A stretch of 64,000 bases of DNA from a virus: IMG/VR virus record IMGVR_UViG_3300033145_000692, positions 36,908 to 100,907 of that record. One strand, written 5' to 3'. Of the stretch, positions 3,355 through 46,237 are shown in pieces. The notes under the pieces are model-generated. The model was not told the origin of the DNA and did not search any database. It worked only from the letters and a program-made list of their open reading frames with translations. The translations under genes and the position numbers were made by a program. Within the stretch, counting starts at the first letter, position 1; each line of letters starts with the position of its first letter.

Positions 3355-4446
3355 TCAAATTGATGGGAGATGGTCGTATACCGGCCCTGATTGGATTTCG
3401 ATCTCAATAATCCCGCTTTCAATAGGGTCAATCACCTCGATGATATTCCCGTCAGCGTCTCGGATGATTACCGTCCCGTCATCTTCGATTGTGATGTTCT
3501 CAGTGTCGTCGATTACAGGTGGGTCAAGCGGTGGCATAGGTGGTGCTATGGTAGGAATCTCTTGCAACACAACACCAAGCAAATCCTGAATCATTTCGAG
3601 AAGCTCATCCAAATCCACTTCGATAATCACCACCTCAGGCTCAGGGGGTAGTTCACCCCATACCTCATCTAGGTCTCCGGTGTCACGATCCTCAACAATG
3701 CGGTTGTACATGTCACCACGCCACGGAACGATCTTGTCTGGTAGAGGTACTTCACGGTCGAACGCCCACATGCAATCATGAATCTTCGACCAATGGTAGA
3801 TGGCTCGCGTTGTCTCAATTACAGTAAGGCGAGGAGCACTACCCATAACCAGAAGTCCCACAATGTCATAGGTATCCTCGTCTACAACGGGACCTCCGGA
3901 GCAACCAGGGTAAGCCGTGATGTCGACGTTGTCGAGCCAACGGGGTACGAGTACCATACGAGAATCGTTAAACAGGCGATCTACAAAGGAAACTTGCCCG
4001 AAGGACACCAGACGTTCATTCAATTTATCAAAAGGTGTCCCACAGTGAACCACCCTTTGACCAACCTTTATCTGATTGAAGCCTCGATAGAACCTGGTGG
4101 TACCATCAAATTCACCGCCGCTGACCACTTCCAACAATGCACAATCGGCTGCAAGCATCTCATCACTTGATCTAAGTACACGGGCAACAGCACGTTTATC
4201 CCCTTGGATCACGTCGATGTCACTGAAGGTACCATTGCGATTCATGAAGGTATTGGCTACATGAGCAGCAGTCCAGATGAAAGTAGTCACCCGGTCCCCA
4301 TCCGTTCGGGTAAAGAGTACCCCGGAGCCGTGTCCACTCCCATCAGTGAGAACGACCGTATTCTCCTGCAACTGTTCTGGGGCAGTTAGTTCTGCAAAGC
4401 ACGGCGTGCTCGCGAACATCAGTATCAAGACAAACAAGTACTTCAT
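3355..4446 (-). CDS. Exported trypsin-like serine protease with acidic/Pro-rich C-terminus
   Basis: Signal peptide MKYLFVLILMFASTPCFA; catalytic motifs TAAH, DCALL and GCSGGP. Confidence 0.85.
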   Translation of the reverse strand: MKYLFVLILMFASTPCFAELTAPEQLQENTVVLTDGSGHGSGVLFTRTDGDRVTTFIWTAAHVANTFMNRNGTFSDIDVIQGDKRAVARVLRSSDEMLAADCALLEVVSGGEFDGTTRFYRGFNQIKVGQRVVHCGTPFDKLNERLVSFGQVSFVDRLFNDSRMVLVPRWLDNVDITAYPGCSGGPVVDEDTYDIVGLLVMGSAPRLTVIETTRAIYHWSKIHDCMWAFDREVPLPDKIVPWRGDMYNRIVEDRDTGDLDEVWGELPPEPEVVIIEVDLDELLEMIQDLLGVVLQEIPTIAPPMPPLDPPVIDDTENITIEDDGTVIIRDADGNIIEVIDPIESGIIEIEIQSGPVYDHLPSI

Positions 4447-4465
4447 CGTGTTCTCCATTGGAAGT

Positions 4466-4774
4466 TTAGTATGTGTCCCAATCAATGGTTTCAAGTGGGA
4501 CGTCCAAGTCGATCTCGACATCGAGATCAGAATCATCAAGTGATGGAAAGTACTCTAGAAAACTTTCGGCTACGATGTAAACCATCACTTCCACATCTCT
4601 CTCGCTGATGGCTTCGATGATGGCAATGTTGTCATACTGCTCGTATGCCATAGCGTACTCATCGAAGCCTTCCAAACCAACATTCAACGCCTTCCGTAGT
4701 TGGGTGTAGGGGTTGTCAAGTTGTGAAATCCACTCTTGACTGAACGTCAAATAGAGTCGTATCCTTGACATCAT
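4466..4774 (-). CDS. Acidic hypothetical protein
   Basis: ATG overlaps the helicase stop (ATGA); very acidic C-terminus. Confidence 0.6.
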   Translation of the reverse strand: MMSRIRLYLTFSQEWISQLDNPYTQLRKALNVGLEGFDEYAMAYEQYDNIAIIEAISERDVEVMVYIVAESFLEYFPSLDDSDLDVEIDLDVPLETIDWDTY

Positions 4775-9037: not shown

Positions 9038-9760
9038 TTAACGTGCTCTTTCGTCACCCTTGGTGTCTTCAACCTTCTCCGTACCACTGTCAGAGGGGTT
9101 CAAAAACCTCTCCATTTCGCGGAGTACCTGCTCGCGGCTGGGGAGACTGTTGAATGGCGTGCTGCACTTCACCACGACTGGTGCGTGCCACGACCACTTC
9201 TTCTTCTCGACCAACTTGACATTCAGTCGGCACGGGAGGGGTCCGTGCGGTTCCACATTCAGATTTCGCTTCTTTATATCCTCAGCCGTCGTGGTGAGGA
9301 AGGGGAAGATTTTCTTCGACTCGGAGCGAGTCGACTTAGTCCCACAGAAGTACTCCAAGAAACGACCGGTGGTTCGCTCATAGACGAGGAAGCTCGTCCC
9401 ATACATACAACCACTGTTCTGCTCCGAACTGGCGGCGGCGATCCGTCCAAATTCTTCCGACTCCATATCATAGTTCGTGATGATGGCATCAGTGTCGCTC
9501 AAATCAAGAGCTTTCGGGCGTCGTGCGAGCGGAATCAGATCGACAGTCTTACCGAGATCGGTAATCTGATCGTCTCCTTCGGGAATACCCCAGTGACCGG
9601 GCGCGATGAGTTCCTTGTTGATCGCCGAGCCTTTGGAATAGAGTTGGAGCCGACCGAGGAAATCGCCACCCTTTGCCAGATCGTCAAAACCGTCATCCGA
9701 ACCGAGTTGCACGGAGGGTAGATTCTCGAAAGCGGGTACCAAAGCTGTTTTGTCACTCAT
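9038..9760 (-). CDS. Putative single-stranded DNA-binding / replication protein
   Basis: 240 aa, beta-rich, charged C-terminal tail, replication context. No decisive motif. Confidence 0.4.
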   Translation of the reverse strand: MSDKTALVPAFENLPSVQLGSDDGFDDLAKGGDFLGRLQLYSKGSAINKELIAPGHWGIPEGDDQITDLGKTVDLIPLARRPKALDLSDTDAIITNYDMESEEFGRIAAASSEQNSGCMYGTSFLVYERTTGRFLEYFCGTKSTRSESKKIFPFLTTTAEDIKKRNLNVEPHGPLPCRLNVKLVEKKKWSWHAPVVVKCSTPFNSLPSREQVLREMERFLNPSDSGTEKVEDTKGDERAR

Positions 9761-34488: not shown

Positions 34489-35523
34489 CTATTGGGCGGT
34501 TCGGTTTATTGTTGGCTGGGTCACATTGCAGCTACCAGAGACAGCAACACTTGCTTCGCCTAGATCAACTTCTCGACTATTCGATCGGAAGTCAGAGAAG
34601 ACAGTCGTTTCGATCGCCTGCGTAGTGCAGATTGGGGTGTGGACCACCTCAATGTCAATCGCGTAGGGTTCGCACACGTCACTTGACGCACTCACCCACC
34701 CGGAAGCCCCACCCTCCTGCTTCAAAGCATCCATCGGAGAGATGGTTTCGCCAGTACCGGTCGTAATGTACTCATACACAAAGTCGAGACTCACATCCAT
34801 CGGGACATCGTTACCGGCACGAACTGTGTCAAGGACACCTCGGTCGAGATCGTACTCATACTCGTTCGCTTCCGTGTAGGTCACATTGCCTTCACCAACC
34901 TTAATGTCGATCTGCTGAGGAAGGAACGTGATAGCCTTACCATTTATGGGCAGGTTGGCAGCATCCAATGCGGGAGTGAAAGTCAACTCCCAAGTTGTTG
35001 CACCTGCATGGAGGAGTGTCACATCCTCCGAACCGGCGTCGGCAAGATCAACATCCTGGATTGTCATCAACGCAACATCGGTGGCAAGGTAGGTTCCCTT
35101 ATACTCGACAATATACGAGACACCAGCAGAACCGGTAACCTCAATATCACCAGCAGTGATATTGGCAAGAAGTTCGAGAGCCGCTTGAACAGCCGCCGGC
35201 GTTGCATTATAAGCAATGCTGGCGGTAGGACCTTCACCATCCCATGTCAGGGTATAGTTACCACTACTTGGTGTATCCAAGAAAATGGTTTGTTGCTCGT
35301 TGGAATTCGCAGCCGTGATTGTGAAGACTGTCAACGGAGACATGTCAGCAACAGTGAAACGGACACCAACGGGTAGGATTGTCACAGCACTTGGGAGATC
35401 GGCAATCGTGTCAATCTCCAGAGTCGTATCGGTCCCTGCAATCGCAACGTCTTCGACAGCAGCAGAACCATCATAGCCGTCCTTCATTCGGACAACTGTG
35501 TTCTTAAGTTCGATCCTGGCGAT
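34489..35523 (-). CDS. Major tail tube protein 2, carrying an inserted decoration domain; probable ATC start
   Basis: Paralog of 35535..36293. TAAGGAGGT followed by ATC GCC AGG ATC GAA CTT AAG gives (M)ARIELKN, matching the paralog N-terminus. Confidence 0.8.
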   Translation of the reverse strand: MARIELKNTVVRMKDGYDGSAAVEDVAIAGTDTTLEIDTIADLPSAVTILPVGVRFTVADMSPLTVFTITAANSNEQQTIFLDTPSSGNYTLTWDGEGPTASIAYNATPAAVQAALELLANITAGDIEVTGSAGVSYIVEYKGTYLATDVALMTIQDVDLADAGSEDVTLLHAGATTWELTFTPALDAANLPINGKAITFLPQQIDIKVGEGNVTYTEANEYEYDLDRGVLDTVRAGNDVPMDVSLDFVYEYITTGTGETISPMDALKQEGGASGWVSASSDVCEPYAIDIEVVHTPICTTQAIETTVFSDFRSNSREVDLGEASVAVSGSCNVTQPTINRTAQ

Positions 35524-35534
35524 ATCACACCTCC

Positions 35535-36293
35535 TTACTGGGCGGTTCTGGAAACAGAGGGTTGGGTCACATTACAACGACCAGAGACAGCAACGCTTGC
35601 TTCACCAATGTCAACTTCACGACTGTCTGATCGAAAGTCCGAGAAAATCGTTGTCTCAATTGCCTGTGTTGAACAGATCGGTGTATGGACCACCTCAATG
35701 TCAACCGCATAGGGCTCACAGGCGTCACTAGAAGCGCTTCTCCATTCGGAAGCCCCTCCAGCCTGCTTCAAGGCATCCATCGGAGAGACAGCCTCTGCGG
35801 TATGCGTAGTGATGTACTCGTACACAAAGTCAAGACTCACATCCATCGGAACTTCGTTGCCAGCACGGACAGTATCGAGGATGCCTCGGTCGAGATCATA
35901 CTCATACTCGTTCGCTTCCGTGTAGGTCACGTTACCGTCTCCGATCTTGATGTCAATCTGAATCGGAGCGAAAGTAACGACTCCTTCATCAAGGTATGTC
36001 CCTGCACCCAGGGCGGGTGTAAAGACAATGTTGGTTGTAGTCGACGCCCCATTGGAGGGAGTTCGTTCTGTGACGGTATGGACCGTCGTGGCAGCCGTTT
36101 CACCTACAACAGTAAAACGAGCACCAATCGGAACCACATCGGTTCCTAGCCCCCCGGCGTTGAGCACAAGGGTGTTAATGTCAAATTCAGTGTCGGTTAC
36201 GACTGGAGCCGTAGTATCCTCGTCAATTGCACCTGCTCCACTGAGACCGTCCTTGATACGGACAATTGTGTTTTTAAGTTCGATGCGTGCCAA
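35535..36293 (-). CDS. Major tail tube protein 1 (TTG start)
   Basis: AGGAGG RBS; lies between tail terminator and chaperone; C-terminal half near-identical to tube 2. Confidence 0.8.
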   Translation of the reverse strand: MARIELKNTIVRIKDGLSGAGAIDEDTTAPVVTDTEFDINTLVLNAGGLGTDVVPIGARFTVVGETAATTVHTVTERTPSNGASTTTNIVFTPALGAGTYLDEGVVTFAPIQIDIKIGDGNVTYTEANEYEYDLDRGILDTVRAGNEVPMDVSLDFVYEYITTHTAEAVSPMDALKQAGGASEWRSASSDACEPYAVDIEVVHTPICSTQAIETTIFSDFRSDSREVDIGEASVAVSGRCNVTQPSVSRTAQ

Positions 36294-37462: not shown

Positions 37463-37744
37463 TTAGGTGAGACTTCGCTCGAAAATGTGTTCCAGGCGTT
37501 CCATTACCTTGATGTTTTGTTCCATCACTAACGTGTTCTTTGCTACAACTGCTGTACAGTCCTTGACCAGCGGGAGGATGACTTTACGTTGCTCATCCTC
37601 AAGTTCTTGAACACGGGTTAGGAGTTTGTCTTCGCGACGATAATCGCGCCAGATGAAAAAGACGATCACGCCAACGAGTGGACCGAGGTTCCGTATGATC
37701 CACCCCAGTTCGGTGACCCCGCCGAAATACGCGAACAGTTCCAT
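37463..37744 (-). CDS. Holin-like single-TM coiled-coil protein
   Basis: LGPLVGVIVFFIW followed by RREDKL and a coiled coil, in a BhlA/UviB-like layout. Confidence 0.55.
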   Translation of the reverse strand: MELFAYFGGVTELGWIIRNLGPLVGVIVFFIWRDYRREDKLLTRVQELEDEQRKVILPLVKDCTAVVAKNTLVMEQNIKVMERLEHIFERSLT

Positions 37745-37820: not shown

Positions 37821-39263
37821 TTAGCCAAGCATGACTACACCAAGGTTAGCGTCAAGCTGTTTGATACCAGCGAGGATATCGCAATTCACGACTGTACCAC
37901 CAGCGTCGATATCGTACTGCATCGTGACTCGCATCGCGACGTTCTCGAAGTCCGCAACACCACTCAGCACACCAAGAGCACCAGCCGGGACAGCCAAGGG
38001 GCGTGTCACCAGAGCCATCGCTTCGCGGTGGAAAGCCAAGTTGAATGAGCCAGCGGGACCAGGGAAAGCGTTGTCACCCGAGGAAACCTCTACTTCCAGG
38101 GGGCGATCCAGCATGATGTCCACACCAGAAGAGGAGTTGTCTTCCACCTCGATGATAGTGTAGGTATGCCGTGCTGCGCCAGCGGTAACACCAAACGAGA
38201 CCAACTGACCGATTTGCGGATCATTGGAGTACCCGGAAGCAACATTCATAACGCCGACATGACCAACAGCATAGGTCGTGGCGTGCATCGTCCACTCCGT
38301 GAAGAGAGTGAGGACGGCGGATGCCTCGTTGGCGTACTTCAGTGGTTCGTTGACCGTGATGCCCGTGGTATCGGTCGACGCGGTGACATCGGTAACCCAC
38401 TTGGGCTGATCATCGCCAGCGATAGTGACATAGCTACCAACCACAGCTTCCTTGGCGGTGATAGTGCAGAGACCCGTGGAAGCTTTGGCCAGGGTAACCC
38501 CAATGGCATTGGCACCAGTGATAGTTCCGGTCACGGTGTCCGCCGACACGAGGTCACAGTACGGAACGTTCTGGGCGAGCCAGGTATTGAAGCCAAGGAT
38601 ACGACCAAGTCGGGCGTTCTCCAAAGCCACACCACCATCGCCTCGCTCATTCGCTCTGATGAACAACTCATTCTGGAGCAAGGCAGTCTCGCTCATGGCG
38701 GACAGCACCAGGTGTCGCTGGGCGTCCAGGGGAGCGTTCCGACGGTTGAGCTTCTCACGAGCGTCCAACACGGTATCGTGACTGGAATCGGACGACAGAT
38801 TGAGCAGACGACCGGATCGGTTCGTCGGGGTCGAGAGGAACTGATGGAAGTGACCAAGCACGGAACGGTCAACCGAGCGGGCGATCGTTCGCATCGAAGG
38901 CACCAGGTAGATACCTACCAAATCCTTGAAGGACTCGCTCTGCTCGCCGTCCTTGATGACGAACGAGTTGTAGAACCACTGGTTCAGCAAAACCGCGACG
39001 TTGGTGGACGAGGCGTCCTGCTTCTCCAAGGTCGTGGTGGCATCAGTCTTCCGGCGAATCTTGAACTCGCCCGGCTTGCGGGTGTTGACCGTGTCGCCGA
39101 AGTTGGCGATCTTGTTCTCGAAGTCACGGTGGACCAAGTTGGCGACTACCATCTCCTCTTGAAGCTGCATCAGACCTTCCATCGCCCAATGTTCGGGGAC
39201 GAAAGCGTCATTGTCGTTGGCGAAACAGGCCACTTCGGGGGCACTAATGTAGAGAGAATTCAT
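37821..39263 (-). CDS. Major capsid protein (P22 coat gp5-like) with insertion domains
   Basis: VANLVHRDFE..FGDTVN, GRILGF, NLAFHREAMALVTRPL, DILAG. GGAG RBS before MNSLY (alternative start 39278). Confidence 0.9.
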   Translation of the reverse strand: MNSLYISAPEVACFANDNDAFVPEHWAMEGLMQLQEEMVVANLVHRDFENKIANFGDTVNTRKPGEFKIRRKTDATTTLEKQDASSTNVAVLLNQWFYNSFVIKDGEQSESFKDLVGIYLVPSMRTIARSVDRSVLGHFHQFLSTPTNRSGRLLNLSSDSSHDTVLDAREKLNRRNAPLDAQRHLVLSAMSETALLQNELFIRANERGDGGVALENARLGRILGFNTWLAQNVPYCDLVSADTVTGTITGANAIGVTLAKASTGLCTITAKEAVVGSYVTIAGDDQPKWVTDVTASTDTTGITVNEPLKYANEASAVLTLFTEWTMHATTYAVGHVGVMNVASGYSNDPQIGQLVSFGVTAGAARHTYTIIEVEDNSSSGVDIMLDRPLEVEVSSGDNAFPGPAGSFNLAFHREAMALVTRPLAVPAGALGVLSGVADFENVAMRVTMQYDIDAGGTVVNCDILAGIKQLDANLGVVMLG

Positions 39264-39337
39264 CGTGTTGTTCTCCATGGAACGGGTACACTTGTTTGTT
39301 TACGAAATAGATACCCCCGAAGGGATCAAACGGTCGA

Positions 39338-40264
39338 TTAAAGTCCGACTGCTGCGGGGTCTTCTTTTCGGAGTTTCGCGTACTGGGCTGTTGACAGCTT
39401 CGTAACATCGACACGACCGCCAGCGCCCGGTGCTAAGCCACCGGTAGCAGAGTTGGCACCAATACCAGAAACAACGTTGCTCTTGAAGAGATTGGCATAG
39501 TCGCCAAGAACCTTCAATCGCTTCACGATTGTGTCAGGTGTACCTTGCGTAATGACATTGTCGCCCTTCTCATCCTGGTCGGGGAAATCGACCATTGTCT
39601 TGTATTCCCCGGTAGGCTTGTTGGTGATTTCATCCATCACCTCGACCAACTTTGTCATAGGTCGAAGAAGTGCAACCACTTGACTGGCATTGTAGGCATC
39701 ATTGGAAGCGGCAGCGTCCTGCAATGACCTGTTAATACTAGACTCGCGGAAGCGTTCCTCCCACATCACGGCAGCTTCTGTCTTCGTCTTCAACTGAATG
39801 TCGAAGTCTTTCTGAAGCAGACCCTTCTCGTGTGCAGCTTGTTGATCTTTCGTCCGATTCTGTTTACGAACGTCTTCAAGTTGAACGTTGAGCTTGTCAC
39901 GTTCTTCACCAACGATGCTCTCATTTTCGAGGAGGGTAGTGACTCTCGTTTCCAGTTCAGCATACTGTTGCTTGTGTTCGATCTCACGGCTCTTTCTGTC
40001 ACGGGCGAGTCGCTCTTCAACAATCTTGTTCACAGCAACTTGGGTGAAAGTTTTACCAGCACCATCGCCAGCAGCAGCGGCACCAGCATCATTACCATCA
40101 CCAGCACCAGCATCAGCACCAGCACTAACACTAGCACTAGCACTAGCACCATCGCCAGCACCATCGCTAGCACCATCGCTAGCCCCAGCACCAGCCCCAG
40201 CCCCAGCCCCAGCACCATCAAAACAAGAAACCAAAGGATCAGACAAGTACAATTCATCAAACAT
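39338..40264 (-). CDS. Capsid scaffolding protein with Ala/Gly-rich N-terminal repeat
   Basis: KTFTQVAVNKIVEERLAR coiled-coil motif; immediately upstream of the capsid gene. Confidence 0.85.
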   Translation of the reverse strand: MFDELYLSDPLVSCFDGAGAGAGAGAGASDGASDGAGDGASASASVSAGADAGAGDGNDAGAAAAGDGAGKTFTQVAVNKIVEERLARDRKSREIEHKQQYAELETRVTTLLENESIVGEERDKLNVQLEDVRKQNRTKDQQAAHEKGLLQKDFDIQLKTKTEAAVMWEERFRESSINRSLQDAAASNDAYNASQVVALLRPMTKLVEVMDEITNKPTGEYKTMVDFPDQDEKGDNVITQGTPDTIVKRLKVLGDYANLFKSNVVSGIGANSATGGLAPGAGGRVDVTKLSTAQYAKLRKEDPAAVGL

Positions 40265-40371: not shown

Positions 40372-40887
40372 CTATGAGACTCTCGATAATCTGATTGCGT
40401 CATCATCACGTAAGAACGGTTTCAACCAACGCCATGCTTGTGGGGTCGGTACACCGTTTATGATGTGTTCAAGTGGAACCTGACTGCGTGAGTATGAGGT
40501 CCTCACCGAACCATAGCCTTGGCTTACGATGCCAAGATTTTCGAGTTCGAGTTCGGGGTCCTTCCCATCAAGTAGATCGTGTGCAATCTCGTATGTCGCC
40601 CTCCGAATAACTTCAGGGACTTCCGTGTCAGCACCCCTGGGGAACTCCAGGGGCTGTGCCGCCTCGGCGACACGAATCTCTGCATCCGTTGCATCTGAGT
40701 CAGCTTCCAATAATGTGTAAACAGCGCTCTTGTAACCCTTGTAGTTGAGGGCGTCAACTATCAACGTTGCAGCCCATAGGGATTTCGGTCGGTCAACAAC
40801 ACTAGCCAAAGACCAAGCTCGTTCGTGGAGGCGTGCCGCAAAGTATTCGGTCGCTTCCACGACGGTTCCATAATAGTCTTGATTCAT
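40372..40887 (-). CDS. Head-tail adaptor (DnaT_2-like)
   Basis: YGTVVEATEYF...QPLEFPR...VPEVIRRA...WLKPFL. Confidence 0.75.
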   Translation of the reverse strand: MNQDYYGTVVEATEYFAARLHERAWSLASVVDRPKSLWAATLIVDALNYKGYKSAVYTLLEADSDATDAEIRVAEAAQPLEFPRGADTEVPEVIRRATYEIAHDLLDGKDPELELENLGIVSQGYGSVRTSYSRSQVPLEHIINGVPTPQAWRWLKPFLRDDDAIRLSRVS

Positions 40888-40895
40888 GGTTTCTC

Positions 40896-43800
40896 CTATT
40901 GACCTACCCAGGAAAACTTACTCTCCTTGGATGCTTCTACAGTTTCAACAATGGTAACAGTTTTCGTTGCACCTTTTTTAGTCTCGGCAACACTGACTGT
41001 CAACGCATTACCGGCGACCGATGTCGCAGGTGTGAAGGTGGCAGCATGTCCAGCAATTGACGTTGCTGGGGTGATAGTTGCCGTGTGTCCTTCTGTTGAT
41101 GTCGCTGGTGTAACAGTAGCCTCGTTACCAGGAGTCGGTGTAGCTGGTGTAAAAGTGGCATCGTTACCAGGAGTCGGTGTCGCTGGTGTGAAAGTGGCAG
41201 TATTCCCAGGAGTCTCTTCAGCAATAACAGGTGTACCGCCAAGTAGGAGTGTGGAATCGGCAGTCATAAGAGCAACATCAGTTGCAGCATTAGTACCTTG
41301 GAATTCCACAACCCAGTCGGTCCCTGGACCAGCGCCACCTGTAACAGCAACAGTGTCGATGTTGCTAAGCAACTCCAATGCTGTCTTAATATCGGCGGCT
41401 ACATCATCATACGTTATCGCTCCGGTTGGACCTTGACCATCGAAGGTCAATGTGAACGAACCACTGTCGGAGTCATTAGGAATGTTGATTGTCTGTGTCT
41501 CGTTGACAGCAGCCACACCCTTAACAGTTTCAGTGATAGTCACAGTCTTACCGGAAAGAAGTGTACCATCCCCACCCATCTGAACCACTCCGGTATCAGC
41601 GAGGGCACCTTGGAATTCACAAGCCCATTCAGGAGCCGTACCAGTAACTGACATGTCACTGTCACCGATGTTAGTCAAAGCGATTAGGGAAGCCTGTACT
41701 ACACCAGCGGAGGCGTTATATGCAATCGTGCTGGTTGTCTGACCATTATAGGTCAGTGTGAAAGTTCCTCCGGTTACTGTTGCTGGAATCGAGACGGTTT
41801 GAATCTCGTTGTTGCCACCACCACCTGACTGAGTCTCAATGACAGTCACATCGGAGCCAGTTAAAAGGGCTCCATCGGCGGTCATCGCATCAATATCAGC
41901 ACCAGCCAGAAGAGTGGCAAATGTAACAACCCAATCGGTATCCGGACCTGGTCCACCAGAGACAACAACATCCCCGGCACCAATGTTTGATAGAGCTTCC
42001 AGAAGACTATCAAGCGTGCCGAAAGTGTCATCAAACTGAATAGCTCCGGTTGTCTGACCAGCATAGGTCAACGTGAATGAGCCACCTGTCGTATCACTAG
42101 GGATACTGACTGTTTGAACTTCATCAACCGCAACAACACCCGGGACAGTTTCAGTGATAGTCACAGTACGACCAGACAACAGAACACCACTTCCTGTGAT
42201 CGCAGAGATAGGCTGTTGCTTCAAATTGACGCCAAACTCAACTTCCCAAGCAGGGGCAGTACCAGTGACAGTCAAATCGCCAACAGTAATGCCCGCCAGA
42301 GCTTCCAAAGCGTCCTTGACATCCGTAGTCGAAGCGTCAAAAGCGATGGTGCCAGTGGTATTACCATCCCATGTCAACGTGTATGTTCCACCGGTCGCAT
42401 CGGAATCAATTGTGACACTTTGAACTTCATTTGTTCCAGCAGTTCCCGTGACTTCAGAGAGGTCGGTGAAACCAAGAAGTGCATCAAAAGTAAGTGTGTA
42501 AGGACCACCAGCAGCACCAGTGACAACAACATCAGCAGGAGCAATGTTGGACAAAGCCTCCAAAGCTGCCTGAACTGTTGCAGCATCAGCATCATAGGCA
42601 ATCATCGCGGTAGTCTGAGCATCATAGGTGATGTCAAAAGTATCACCAGCAACTGTACTACCCAATGTGATTGTCTGAATTTCGTCTGTCCCAGCATCGC
42701 CAGTGACTTCCGACACATCCGTATTTTCCAGGAGTTGATCAAAGGTTAGCGTCCAAGGACCTCCAGCAGAACCTGTGACAAGGATATCACCAGCGGTGAC
42801 ATTTGACAAACCTTCCAAAGCGGTTTGAACTGTAGCAGCGGCAGCATCATAAGCAATGTCGTCTGTCGTTTGACCATCATAGGTGACATAAAATGAATCA
42901 CCCGCTATAGTCGAAGCCAATGTGATTGTCTGGATTTCATCAGTTCCACCAACCGCCGTAACCTCAGTCTGAGCAGCATATCCAAGAAGCTCACCAAACG
43001 TCAAAGTGTACGGACCACCAGCAGAACCCGTGACAACACAATCATCGGTGTCAATGCCAGAGAAGACTTCCAAAGCCGTCTGGACTGTCCCTGCGGCAGC
43101 ATCATAAGGAATGTCAGTCGTTGTCTCACCACCCCAAGTGATAGCGAACGTATCACCAATGATAGTTCCACTGAGTGTCAGTGTTTGTACTTCATGGGTA
43201 CCCGCAATGGCGGTTACTTGGGCAAGGTCAGTAAAACCAAGAGTTGCATCAAAAGAAAGTGTGTAAGGACCCCCAGCAGACCCTGATACAACAACATCAC
43301 CAGCGGTTATACCACCCAAAACTTCCAAAGCCGCTTCAACTGTTGCAGCAGAAGCATCATAAGGAATAGGAGTGGTCGTAGCAGCAGAATAGGTGATGTC
43401 AAAGGTATCACCAACTTGTGTGTTGGAAAGTGTCAGTGTTTGAACTTCGTCTCTCCCAGCGTCACCAGTGACTTCCGACACATTCGTATTGGCCAAGAGT
43501 TGATCGAAGGTTAGTGTCCAAGGACCACCGGCACCACCAGTAACAATGATGTCACCAGCGGTTACATTCGACAGAGCTACCAAAGCTGCCTGAACTGTAG
43601 CAGCGACGGCATCAAGGGGAATGTCGGTCGTTGTCTGACCATCATAGGTGATATAGAACACATCACCAGCTTGTGTGCTTGTGAGTGCCACAGTCTGGAT
43701 TTCATCAGTACCACCAACACCTGTGATGGCTCCCATGTCTGTGAGATCGAGATTGCCAGCGAAGGTTACAACTACTGGCGTACCAGGGGCGGGACCACCA

Positions 43801-44471
43801 GACAGTACAACATCGCCAGATTCGATACCATCAAGGGCTACCAGAGCCGCAAGGATCGTGGTGTTATTGTCGTCGATATCCAATACAGTGGTCTCCTTGG
43901 CGTCCCAAGTCAACGTATACGTATCCGTAGAAGCATTACCCGAATAGGAAATTGTTTGAATTTCGTCAACACCTACATCAGAGGCAACAATGAGGGACTG
44001 GTCAAGACCTGCAAGATCACCTGTGAACTCGACAGTCCAGGGACCTCCACCAGAACCAGTGATGGTCCCATTACCAGCACCTACTGTCGAAAGACCCTCG
44101 AAGGCGGTTTCGACCGTGGCAGCAGAAGCGTCGTACGCAATAGCCGCTGTCATCTGACCATCGAAGGTCAGCTTGAAAGTCTCATCAGCCACACCACTAT
44201 TGTACGTAACAGTCTGCTGTTCGTTCTGAGAAGGATCAGCTACAACAAAAATCTTGGCTGGGTCGTCAATCGCGATCCACAACTCGTCACCAGCAGACAA
44301 CTCGAAACCTGTGATGGTCGTGACACCAGTCGTCCCAACATAAACGATGTCAGAATTACCTGCCGCCGCCTTGATCATAAGACCATTGGAGAGTGTTCGG
44401 GTAGTACTAATAGCGGCTGCCGCAATTTCGGCACCACCATAACCAGTCTTTATTTCACTAAACGCTGTCAT
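40896..44471 (-). CDS. Large repeat-domain virion decoration/fibre protein (11 'EVQT' domains)
   Basis: 11 copies of an 85-105-aa domain (dEvQt...ftltydGqtT..iaydA..vqaALeaL..i..gdv.VtG..ggpwt.tF) plus seven 13-aa C-terminal repeats. Confidence 0.85.
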   Translation of the reverse strand: MTAFSEIKTGYGGAEIAAAAISTTRTLSNGLMIKAAAGNSDIVYVGTTGVTTITGFELSAGDELWIAIDDPAKIFVVADPSQNEQQTVTYNSGVADETFKLTFDGQMTAAIAYDASAATVETAFEGLSTVGAGNGTITGSGGGPWTVEFTGDLAGLDQSLIVASDVGVDEIQTISYSGNASTDTYTLTWDAKETTVLDIDDNNTTILAALVALDGIESGDVVLSGGPAPGTPVVVTFAGNLDLTDMGAITGVGGTDEIQTVALTSTQAGDVFYITYDGQTTTDIPLDAVAATVQAALVALSNVTAGDIIVTGGAGGPWTLTFDQLLANTNVSEVTGDAGRDEVQTLTLSNTQVGDTFDITYSAATTTPIPYDASAATVEAALEVLGGITAGDVVVSGSAGGPYTLSFDATLGFTDLAQVTAIAGTHEVQTLTLSGTIIGDTFAITWGGETTTDIPYDAAAGTVQTALEVFSGIDTDDCVVTGSAGGPYTLTFGELLGYAAQTEVTAVGGTDEIQTITLASTIAGDSFYVTYDGQTTDDIAYDAAAATVQTALEGLSNVTAGDILVTGSAGGPWTLTFDQLLENTDVSEVTGDAGTDEIQTITLGSTVAGDTFDITYDAQTTAMIAYDADAATVQAALEALSNIAPADVVVTGAAGGPYTLTFDALLGFTDLSEVTGTAGTNEVQSVTIDSDATGGTYTLTWDGNTTGTIAFDASTTDVKDALEALAGITVGDLTVTGTAPAWEVEFGVNLKQQPISAITGSGVLLSGRTVTITETVPGVVAVDEVQTVSIPSDTTGGSFTLTYAGQTTGAIQFDDTFGTLDSLLEALSNIGAGDVVVSGGPGPDTDWVVTFATLLAGADIDAMTADGALLTGSDVTVIETQSGGGGNNEIQTVSIPATVTGGTFTLTYNGQTTSTIAYNASAGVVQASLIALTNIGDSDMSVTGTAPEWACEFQGALADTGVVQMGGDGTLLSGKTVTITETVKGVAAVNETQTINIPNDSDSGSFTLTFDGQGPTGAITYDDVAADIKTALELLSNIDTVAVTGGAGPGTDWVVEFQGTNAATDVALMTADSTLLLGGTPVIAEETPGNTATFTPATPTPGNDATFTPATPTPGNEATVTPATSTEGHTATITPATSIAGHAATFTPATSVAGNALTVSVAETKKGATKTVTIVETVEASKESKFSWVGQ

Positions 44472-46237
44472 GTCTGTTTCCCTTTGCCGCGAGTGCGGTC
44501 ATTAGTGGTGTCTTGAAGTGTGGTATCCCGACTAAGCTCCTTCTCTTCCGTACCTGAATTGGTATTGTCATCCAAATCGACAATCCCCCGTGAACCCGGG
44601 GTAGGTGGTGCCGAATCAAGGACACCTTGGTGTTCTGCGATTGCCATCAGCCTGGCAATGTGATCTTTTCTCGCCTGAAGGTATTCATTATCAGGGAAAC
44701 CAAGGGCGATTGATGCTAGTTGCTCACCAACAAGACCAGCCTCCTTAGCAGCGATGATAATTTCTGGGTTAGCAGTCGTGAACTTGGCTGCATCAACCTC
44801 GGTACTGATTTTCTTGAGTATGTCTGGGCTCACCTTACCACCGAGCAGAGTTGAAACCACCGTCTTCCAAAGCTCCTTCTGAGCCACCTTACTTGGGGTG
44901 TTGGTAATAATCTCACTCAGCTTGGTTGCCTCGGTTACACGGTCTAGGTCGCTCTTCAAACTGTATCGGTTAGGGTATTTGACAGTAGCTATCTGACGTT
45001 TCTGTGGAATTGTCTGCTCATACGCAGCCCAGAACTCCACTATCTGACGTTCGGCAGCTTCGAGCTTCATACCGATGTAACTCAGACCAGCTTCCAAGCC
45101 ACGGTTGTCCATTCCCTTTGATTCAGCAGAGGCACGACCAGCAAGTGTTTGCACCGCGAGATTGACCAAATTCTTGATGTCAGCTTTCATCTTTTCCTGG
45201 AGAGCCATTGACGCCATCAGTGGTTCACTCGACGGATGGATGAAACCAGGTCGATCTGTATTGAGATTGTATCGTCTTCCTTGAGTTGTCCCGACTTTCA
45301 CCTCGTTGTCATGGGCACTTTGCCCACCGGCTGTTGCCGTCCCATCAGGATTGGCTGCCATCTTTAAGTGACCACCGACCGCTCGAATATCAGATTGTTC
45401 GGTATAGAATGGGAAGTTTGAGGACAGGGCGTACCCAACATCACTGGATGTCAGGTTAAGTAGAGCGATCTGGTACTCGCAAACATCAACGAGTAAACTC
45501 TGTCCGATGTCAAGAAGAACAAACGGTATTCGTTCCAGGTCGAGTTGGATTGGACCTGAAGCATTACCGTTTCTGTCGACCAGTTCATCTTCATAATTGT
45601 AGAACTGGATCATCACCTTACCACCCTCTTTCCAGAGGTGGCGATAGCGACTGACTTCTTCTTTTGGGAGTCCCGTAGCATTGTCGTATTTGACAACTCT
45701 GTCACGAAGCAACAGGGCAGTAAACTCGGCTGGATGCTCAGGATCAGTACAAGAGTAAGACAGGATATCCTCTATCTTGTACGAATACAGGTATGGGCGA
45801 AAGTTTCCAGCTTGTGCTAGTGTAGCATCATTGGATGTAGTCGGAGCATCCACGAAAATACCGCACCGACCCATAATGAGCATCTCTTCAAGGACTTGTT
45901 GACCCATGAACCCAGACATACTCGAACCACGCATATCAACGCCCATGTTGCGACCGGCAACTGCCTTATGATACGCATCACTACCACCATGGCGGACAAC
46001 GTCGGACATGGGTTGGAAGAGCGAATTTCTGATATCACAAAGGGTTGATTTGGCAAATGCTGGACTTGGCGTGATAGACTTACGGAGGGCAAATTCTGCA
46101 TTGTCTTCCCGGGAGGTGTACTTCATCAGGTACTGTTCCCTGAAAGCCTCACCGCCAGCATAGGTCAACCGGAACTTTGTCCAGGACGTACTGTTCGTAT
46201 AGTAGCTCGGGAGCCGGAAATTCGTGATACTATCCAT
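44468..46237 (-). CDS. Portal protein (DUF4055-like)
   Basis: YAGG..FREQYL, GRCGIFVD, IPFV; directly after TerL. Confidence 0.85.
   Translation of the reverse strand: MDSITNFRLPSYYTNSTSWTKFRLTYAGGEAFREQYLMKYTSREDNAEFALRKSITPSPAFAKSTLCDIRNSLFQPMSDVVRHGGSDAYHKAVAGRNMGVDMRGSSMSGFMGQQVLEEMLIMGRCGIFVDAPTTSNDATLAQAGNFRPYLYSYKIEDILSYSCTDPEHPAEFTALLLRDRVVKYDNATGLPKEEVSRYRHLWKEGGKVMIQFYNYEDELVDRNGNASGPIQLDLERIPFVLLDIGQSLLVDVCEYQIALLNLTSSDVGYALSSNFPFYTEQSDIRAVGGHLKMAANPDGTATAGGQSAHDNEVKVGTTQGRRYNLNTDRPGFIHPSSEPLMASMALQEKMKADIKNLVNLAVQTLAGRASAESKGMDNRGLEAGLSYIGMKLEAAERQIVEFWAAYEQTIPQKRQIATVKYPNRYSLKSDLDRVTEATKLSEIITNTPSKVAQKELWKTVVSTLLGGKVSPDILKKISTEVDAAKFTTANPEIIIAAKEAGLVGEQLASIALGFPDNEYLQARKDHIARLMAIAEHQGVLDSAPPTPGSRGIVDLDDNTNSGTEEKELSRDTTLQDTTNDRTRGKGKQT

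Follow-up and report, generated by a model that had tools for sequence, protein, structure and literature searches.

P22-type coat proteins normally assemble without proteolysis. Short tags that are cut by prohead proteases are known from other phages, as the capsid-targeting sequence of the T4 internal proteins and the propeptides that the proteases T4 gp21 and HK97 gp4 remove. Another short peptide, the cargo-loading peptide of encapsulins, is borne on a flexible linker and docks to the inside of a shell that has the HK97 fold. For leaders that are paired on a scaffold and a coat protein, the Prp/L27 system of Firmicutes is, to our knowledge, the only explanation given so far.

In Staphylococcus phage 80alpha, the capsid protein (CP) and the scaffold protein (SP) undergo Prp-dependent N-terminal processing (Wall et al., 2015; PMC5744158; see also review, PMC9405229). 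Both are cut at F|A by a protease that the phage itself does not encode, and they lose 13-14 residues (PMC5744158). Assembly requires the leader of the scaffold but can do without its cleavage (PMC5744158). This Prp work was all that a search of the open literature turned up, and no description of the leader family treated here was found.

Head module and coat family

The DNA analysed here, called the window below, is a 64 kb stretch from the genome of an uncultured phage of Planctomycetes. We know of almost no cultured members among the phages of Planctomycetota. On its minus strand the window holds a standard head module in the order TerL (46249-47943), portal protein (44468-46237; phrog_145, E 7e-35), a 1191-aa repeat protein (40896-44471), a head-tail adaptor of 171 aa (40372-40887; phrog_477 head-tail adaptor Ad1, E 2e-12), a head scaffolding protein of 308 aa (ORF 39338-40264; phrog_206, E 1.5e-6), the major capsid (coat) protein (37821-39263), and neck, tail-tube and tape-measure genes. 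Repeats of the 1191-aa protein match PHROGs named as tail proteins. This gene is optional, and in two relatives (G008 and G009) the adaptor comes directly after the portal. The scaffold consists of a leader, an acidic linker rich in Gly and Ala, a coiled-coil region and a C-terminal domain, and its homologues in relatives also lie directly upstream of the coat gene.

The coat protein, of P22 type and 480 aa long when counted from the second ATG of an ORF that is open from 39278, is a member of the P22 coat protein family PF11651 (P22_CoatProtein, E 4.2e-24; 85.6 bits, where the cut-off is 24). It also matches phrog_283 (E 1e-55), and tblastn with the coat gave matches to coats annotated as P22 coat protein. 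An HK97-like fold, as is expected of this family, is likely, and the AF2 monomer model of the coat is confident (pLDDT 79, pTM 0.79). Directly after the coat gene there is a gene for a 93-aa protein (37463-37744) with a predicted membrane helix and a coiled coil; it is kept in G006, G008 and G009 and has no family match.

A paired leader on scaffold and coat

The original prediction held that the scaffold and the capsid protein have a common N-terminal leader motif. This motif is real. The scaffold begins with MFDELYLSDPLVSCF, a leader of 15 aa (40220-40264, minus strand), and goes on as DGAGAG, the proposed junction being F|DGAGAG. The coat ORF, read from 39278, gives MENNTMNSLYISAPEVACF and then ANDND. 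Since GGAG is found 9 nt upstream of the second ATG (39263) and all relatives begin with MN.LY, the coat most likely starts there, and its leader is therefore MNSLYISAPEVACF, 14 aa long (39222-39263, minus strand), with the proposed junction F|ANDNDAFVPEHW. In six frames of the window, the pattern LY[LIVM]SxPxV[SA]CF has two sites only, which are these two N-termini, and looser sub-patterns revealed no further N-terminal copy in the window or in the whole 100.9 kb genome. By a rough estimate from typical residue frequencies, the motif is expected by chance about 5e-12 times per position. The two copies use different codons. Thus, the likeness of the leaders exists at the protein level, and a DNA repeat or gene conversion was rejected as the origin of the pair.

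A Sec or lipoprotein signal peptide was also rejected as a reading of the leader. The criteria for such a signal were a basic n-region, a hydrophobic core of at least 7 residues, and either an AxA site or a lipobox whose Cys does not vary. The leader, which is 8-16 aa long across the family, contains Asp, Glu and Pro, and many members have M, L, A, Y, V or H in place of its Cys.

Some P22-type coats have no leader, and they begin at or beside the position of the junction, such as those of MaAM05 (MATANFIPEIW) and phiCP39-O (MAVTSFIPKLW). The coats of Hiyaa and SSP002 likewise carry no tag, nor do the scaffolds of any of these four phages. The predicted mature coat start, ANDND, coincides with the natural N-terminus of the leaderless coats, so the tag can be described as an add-on placed before the normal start of the protein. 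In three relatives, 3-10 extra residues lie between the tag and the N-arm, which indicates that the tag is a separable module. The conserved acidic N-arm of the coat that follows is presumably a scaffold-binding element, by analogy with P22.

Conservation and co-variation in relatives

A search with the coat gave 80 IMG/VR loci (identity 38-86%), and a search with a coat profile gave 22 loci in species genomes, mostly prophages in large contigs. These contigs come mostly from Thermoguttaceae, Pirellulales and Planctomycetaceae, and the hosts are therefore Planctomycetota. Throughout the 80 and 22 loci (coat identity 34-86%), nearly every scaffold/coat pair carries the tag on both proteins. The consensus of the leader is x-L-Y-L-S-x-[PA]-x-V-[AS]-C-[FY], followed by [ADE]-[NG]-[DE]. 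The best-conserved positions are the last four of the leader and the first three beyond the junction, and the shortest leaders, of 8 aa, keep only the residues adjacent to the junction. Conservation that is centred on the junction and kept even in the shortest leaders is the pattern of a protease site.

The tag was found on no other virion protein in five whole genomes or in the 102 loci. The tail tube, whose N-terminus reads MARIEL, does not vary in step with the tag. Two paralogous tail-tube genes are present (34489-35487 and 35535-36293), and both products begin with MARIEL in most relatives; in the closest relative (L001:5251), the second copy reads ISRIELRN at the homologous position, without Met.

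Tags differ between phages, yet they shift jointly in the two proteins. Examples of matched tags are YLLQASVLCF with YLLQASVSMF, RARLACY with RARLVCF, AVTVCY with AETVCY, EFVCY with EFICY, and LVY with LVY. Co-variation was scored on the last ten leader residues of 55 non-identical pairs with 20,000 shuffles. Cognate pairs have 5.0 identities and non-cognate pairs 2.6, a result reached by none of the 20,000 shuffles; when only 7 cluster representatives were used, 3-5 of 20,000 shuffles reached the observed score. In 51 of the 55 pairs, both leaders end in residues of the same class (45 aromatic/aromatic and 6 basic/basic). In one clade, represented by contigs that are fragments, the last residue has changed from F/Y/W to K/R in both proteins together (MFKMILAADVRMVAK with MKLLAILLADPRFIAR). 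Furthermore, one host chromosome carries two prophage lineages with different tags, each matching within its own pair. The original prediction had staked itself on conservation of the motif in homologous pairs, and in about 70 scaffold/coat pairs the leader is both conserved and co-varying.

Some of these loci have features of their own. The adaptor of the clade with K/R leaders (L063, L067, L070-L072, L075, L088) is extended at its N-terminus by a domain of about 55 aa (MATKHLIYTTG...). In several relatives (L058:4908-6001; L031:5330-5966; also L052, L053, L073), the coat gene is interrupted right behind the part that encodes leader and N-arm (...PE.WA). The insert in these split genes is about 0.7-1 kb long and has an endonuclease-like ORF, and Rfam recognises a group I intron in L058 (5625-5941, 68.8 bits) and in L031 (55.9 bits). 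At L146 (G005:C1:1294292-1294333), a lone scaffold-type leader, MLLSQPVAACY-DGA, runs directly into a translated sequence that resembles a tRNA gene; perhaps a prophage was once integrated at a tRNA attachment site and this is what is left of its end.

Search for a leader protease

As had been noted, no prohead protease gene is present between portal and capsid, according to PHROGs, Pfam and a fold search. This interval, which has no gene of the HK97, T4 or lambda protease type, contains the 1191-aa repeat protein, the adaptor and the scaffold, and none of the three matches a peptidase family. The 171-aa adaptor gene stands in the slot for a protease, between portal and scaffold, and in 82 related loci it likewise precedes the scaffold gene. 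It was rejected as a protease on account of its phrog_477 match and of a fold search whose best hits, though weak throughout, are adaptor proteins from connector complexes of solved structure (HFTV1, Bxb1, Douge, SPP1). No protease domain was found in the portal, the 1191-aa repeat protein, the tape measure, the scaffold or the coat, and among the genes common to the five compared genomes, the present one and those of the relatives G006 to G009, neither Pfam nor PHROGs recognised a protease. One of the core genes present in all compared genomes, which lies beside ParB (9038-9760), encodes a 240-aa protein with the conserved motifs GCMYG and FCGT.S.R.E and has no family match.

The Prp/L27 route was rejected. 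Prp (PF04327) occurs in none of five host genomes and none of five phage genomes, in a search in which control genomes gave matches, and L27 begins with MAHKKGQGSS, without any extension, in five prophage-bearing Planctomycetota genomes. A leader protease would thus not be Prp. A 17-column leader profile of limited sensitivity was also run on five host genomes (36 Mb), and at the N-termini of real genes it found every scaffold/coat pair of the prophages and nothing more, which suggests that no host substrate is mimicked. Of the likeness to 80alpha, the formal analogy, a paired conserved leader, stands, and the part that involves Prp falls. The formal analogy is sound because the leaders are conserved and co-vary, and because the predicted mature start is the N-terminus of leaderless coats.

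Two peptidases encoded by the phage itself were considered as the cutter. The first is a small C92-like cysteine peptidase of the permuted papain fold (51148-51720, minus strand), which has a weak PF05708 match and no signal peptide. His37 and Cys146 are invariant in 12 homologues. This peptidase is present in G000, G006, G007, G019 and G025, in a divergent form in G008, in at least 21 IMG/VR relatives, and in three of the five relatives that are at least 90% complete. It is thus a candidate leader peptidase. However, it is absent from two genomes that bear the leader on scaffold and coat alike, G009 (147 kb, 100% complete) and G018 (101 kb, 96% complete), by BLAST, by an unfiltered family HMM over all ORFs, by a scan for the catalytic motif and by Pfam PF05708, and as a universal leader peptidase it was rejected. 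Moreover, its gene sits between TerS and TerL in a cassette of exported proteins with variable content, where lysis genes are expected, and this placement fits an amidase of the endolysin type. That this enzyme cuts the tag is, with these absences, quite improbable.

The second is a trypsin-like serine peptidase (3355-4539, minus strand; PF13365 Trypsin_2, E 1e-13) with homologues in G006, G007 and G008. The last leader residue falls into the chymotrypsin or the trypsin class, and the pocket of such an enzyme would match F/Y/W or K/R. However, it has an N-terminal signal peptide, and all four homologues start with a signal-peptide-like sequence or a membrane anchor, so the enzyme should leave the cytoplasm, where heads assemble. 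Its gene is also 35 kb away from the head module, surrounded by replication genes, and even an unfiltered HMM found no homologue in the complete G009. It was rejected on its signal peptide and this absence, and cleavage of the tag by it can hardly be credited. The enzymes named in the original prediction thus find no support, as Prp is absent and the phage peptidases are exported or not conserved among leader-bearing relatives. A leader protease is probably neither of the two, and what remains as a possible cutter is a host cytoplasmic endopeptidase, or an unrecognised activity that is phage-encoded or dependent on assembly.

Cleaved propeptide or docking tag

The most likely reading of the tag, to which we give about an even chance, is a leader propeptide of scaffold and coat that is cleaved by an unrecognised protease. 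This rating reflects that the anatomy matches 80alpha in all but the enzyme and the host template. Each of the two proteins would carry an N-terminal leader of 14-15 residues set before its normal start, and the leader would be removed before the procapsid assembles or while it does so, by a cut between an aromatic residue, or K/R in one clade, and the acidic stretch. The products would be a coat starting with ANDNDAFVPEHW and a scaffold starting with DGAGAG, in the manner in which coat and scaffold of 80alpha lose their leaders. We infer both the cut itself and the exact bond.

The main rival is that the tag stays uncut and serves as a docking or assembly peptide, the N-terminus of the scaffold, with its hydrophobic tag and acidic patch, imitating the tip of the coat N-arm. 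A single phage-encoded site would then receive both N-termini, such as a pocket on the inside of the coat shell or the scaffold's basic C-terminal domain, and the tag would nucleate, time or release scaffold-coat contacts in the way of encapsulin cargo-loading peptides. Against cleavage it counts that the likeness of scaffold and coat runs past the junction into the acidic stretch, as [ADE]-[NG]-[DE]-[NG]-D in both proteins, and that it is phage-specific, as in the two prophage lineages of one chromosome with their own matched tags. A binding partner encoded by the phage would explain these two properties equally well. Only the scaffold/coat family has the tag, which was found on no other phage or host protein, the scaffold bears it on a long flexible acidic linker, and the protease search of phage genes and hosts found none. 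In 80alpha, too, assembly needs the scaffold leader and not its cleavage (PMC5744158). With the shared acidic stretch, the phage-specific co-variation, the restriction to a single protein pair and the need for the leader in 80alpha, docking is a serious rival.

However, leaderless homologues indicate that the coat fold needs no such peptide, and very short leaders keep nothing but the residues beside the junction. The coupled switch from F/Y/W to K/R at one position resembles a change in the specificity pocket of a protease. In addition, a hydrophobic 14-mer on each coat subunit would need burial, but in the AF2 monomer model residues 1-17 of the coat are disordered and no docking site for the leader is offered. 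An uncut docking tag is plausible, though less likely than cleavage.

The cleaved propeptide can be put in a more specific form, which we hold tentatively and at somewhat less than an even chance. This would be an undescribed type of head maturation in Planctomycetota phages, in which a private, fast-evolving propeptide on scaffold and coat is cut at an aromatic|acidic or basic|acidic bond, either by a host endopeptidase that has escaped recognition or, in an assembly-dependent way, by the head proteins, neither Prp nor a known prohead protease being involved. If the tag is cut, there is a new protease-substrate pair to discover, and P22-type heads, the textbook case of protease-free assembly, would gain a processed variant. 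If it is uncut, the tag would be a new kind of coupling element between scaffold and coat. Either way, its sequence can be used to recognise the head genes of phages that infect Planctomycetota.

Comparison with known systems

The T4 and HK97 propeptide systems are similar in that a short N-terminal tag is common to several head proteins, and there it is removed inside the prohead. In those phages, however, a dedicated prohead protease is encoded beside the scaffold or coat gene, whereas the present head module has none, and the T4 tag ends in Glu, unlike the leader described here. The encapsulin cargo peptides, as short docking peptides on a flexible linker, provide the model for an uncleaved tag, but they are usually C-terminal, are not on the shell protein and have no sequence likeness to the present tag. 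P22-type assembly (PF11651) has the same coat family and no protease, and there, too, the scaffold has a gene of its own immediately upstream of the coat gene. The difference is that P22, MaAM05, phiCP39-O, Hiyaa and SSP002 have no N-terminal tag on coat or scaffold.

In 80alpha, as in the present phage, two otherwise unrelated head proteins have a common N-terminal leader of 13-15 residues that ends in Phe, the residue after Phe in the coat is Ala (F|A), the leader stands in front of the N-arm, and the head module is without a prohead protease. The motif is LxLNLQxF in 80alpha and LYLSxPxVAC[FY] here. The hosts here are Planctomycetota without Prp, whose L27 starts from MAHKKG and in which no protein with the tag was found, and the coat here is of P22 type with a cleavage that is inferred. 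The analogy with 80alpha thus holds in form only, and the same leader arrangement arose on a different coat family, in a phylum without Prp or an extended L27.
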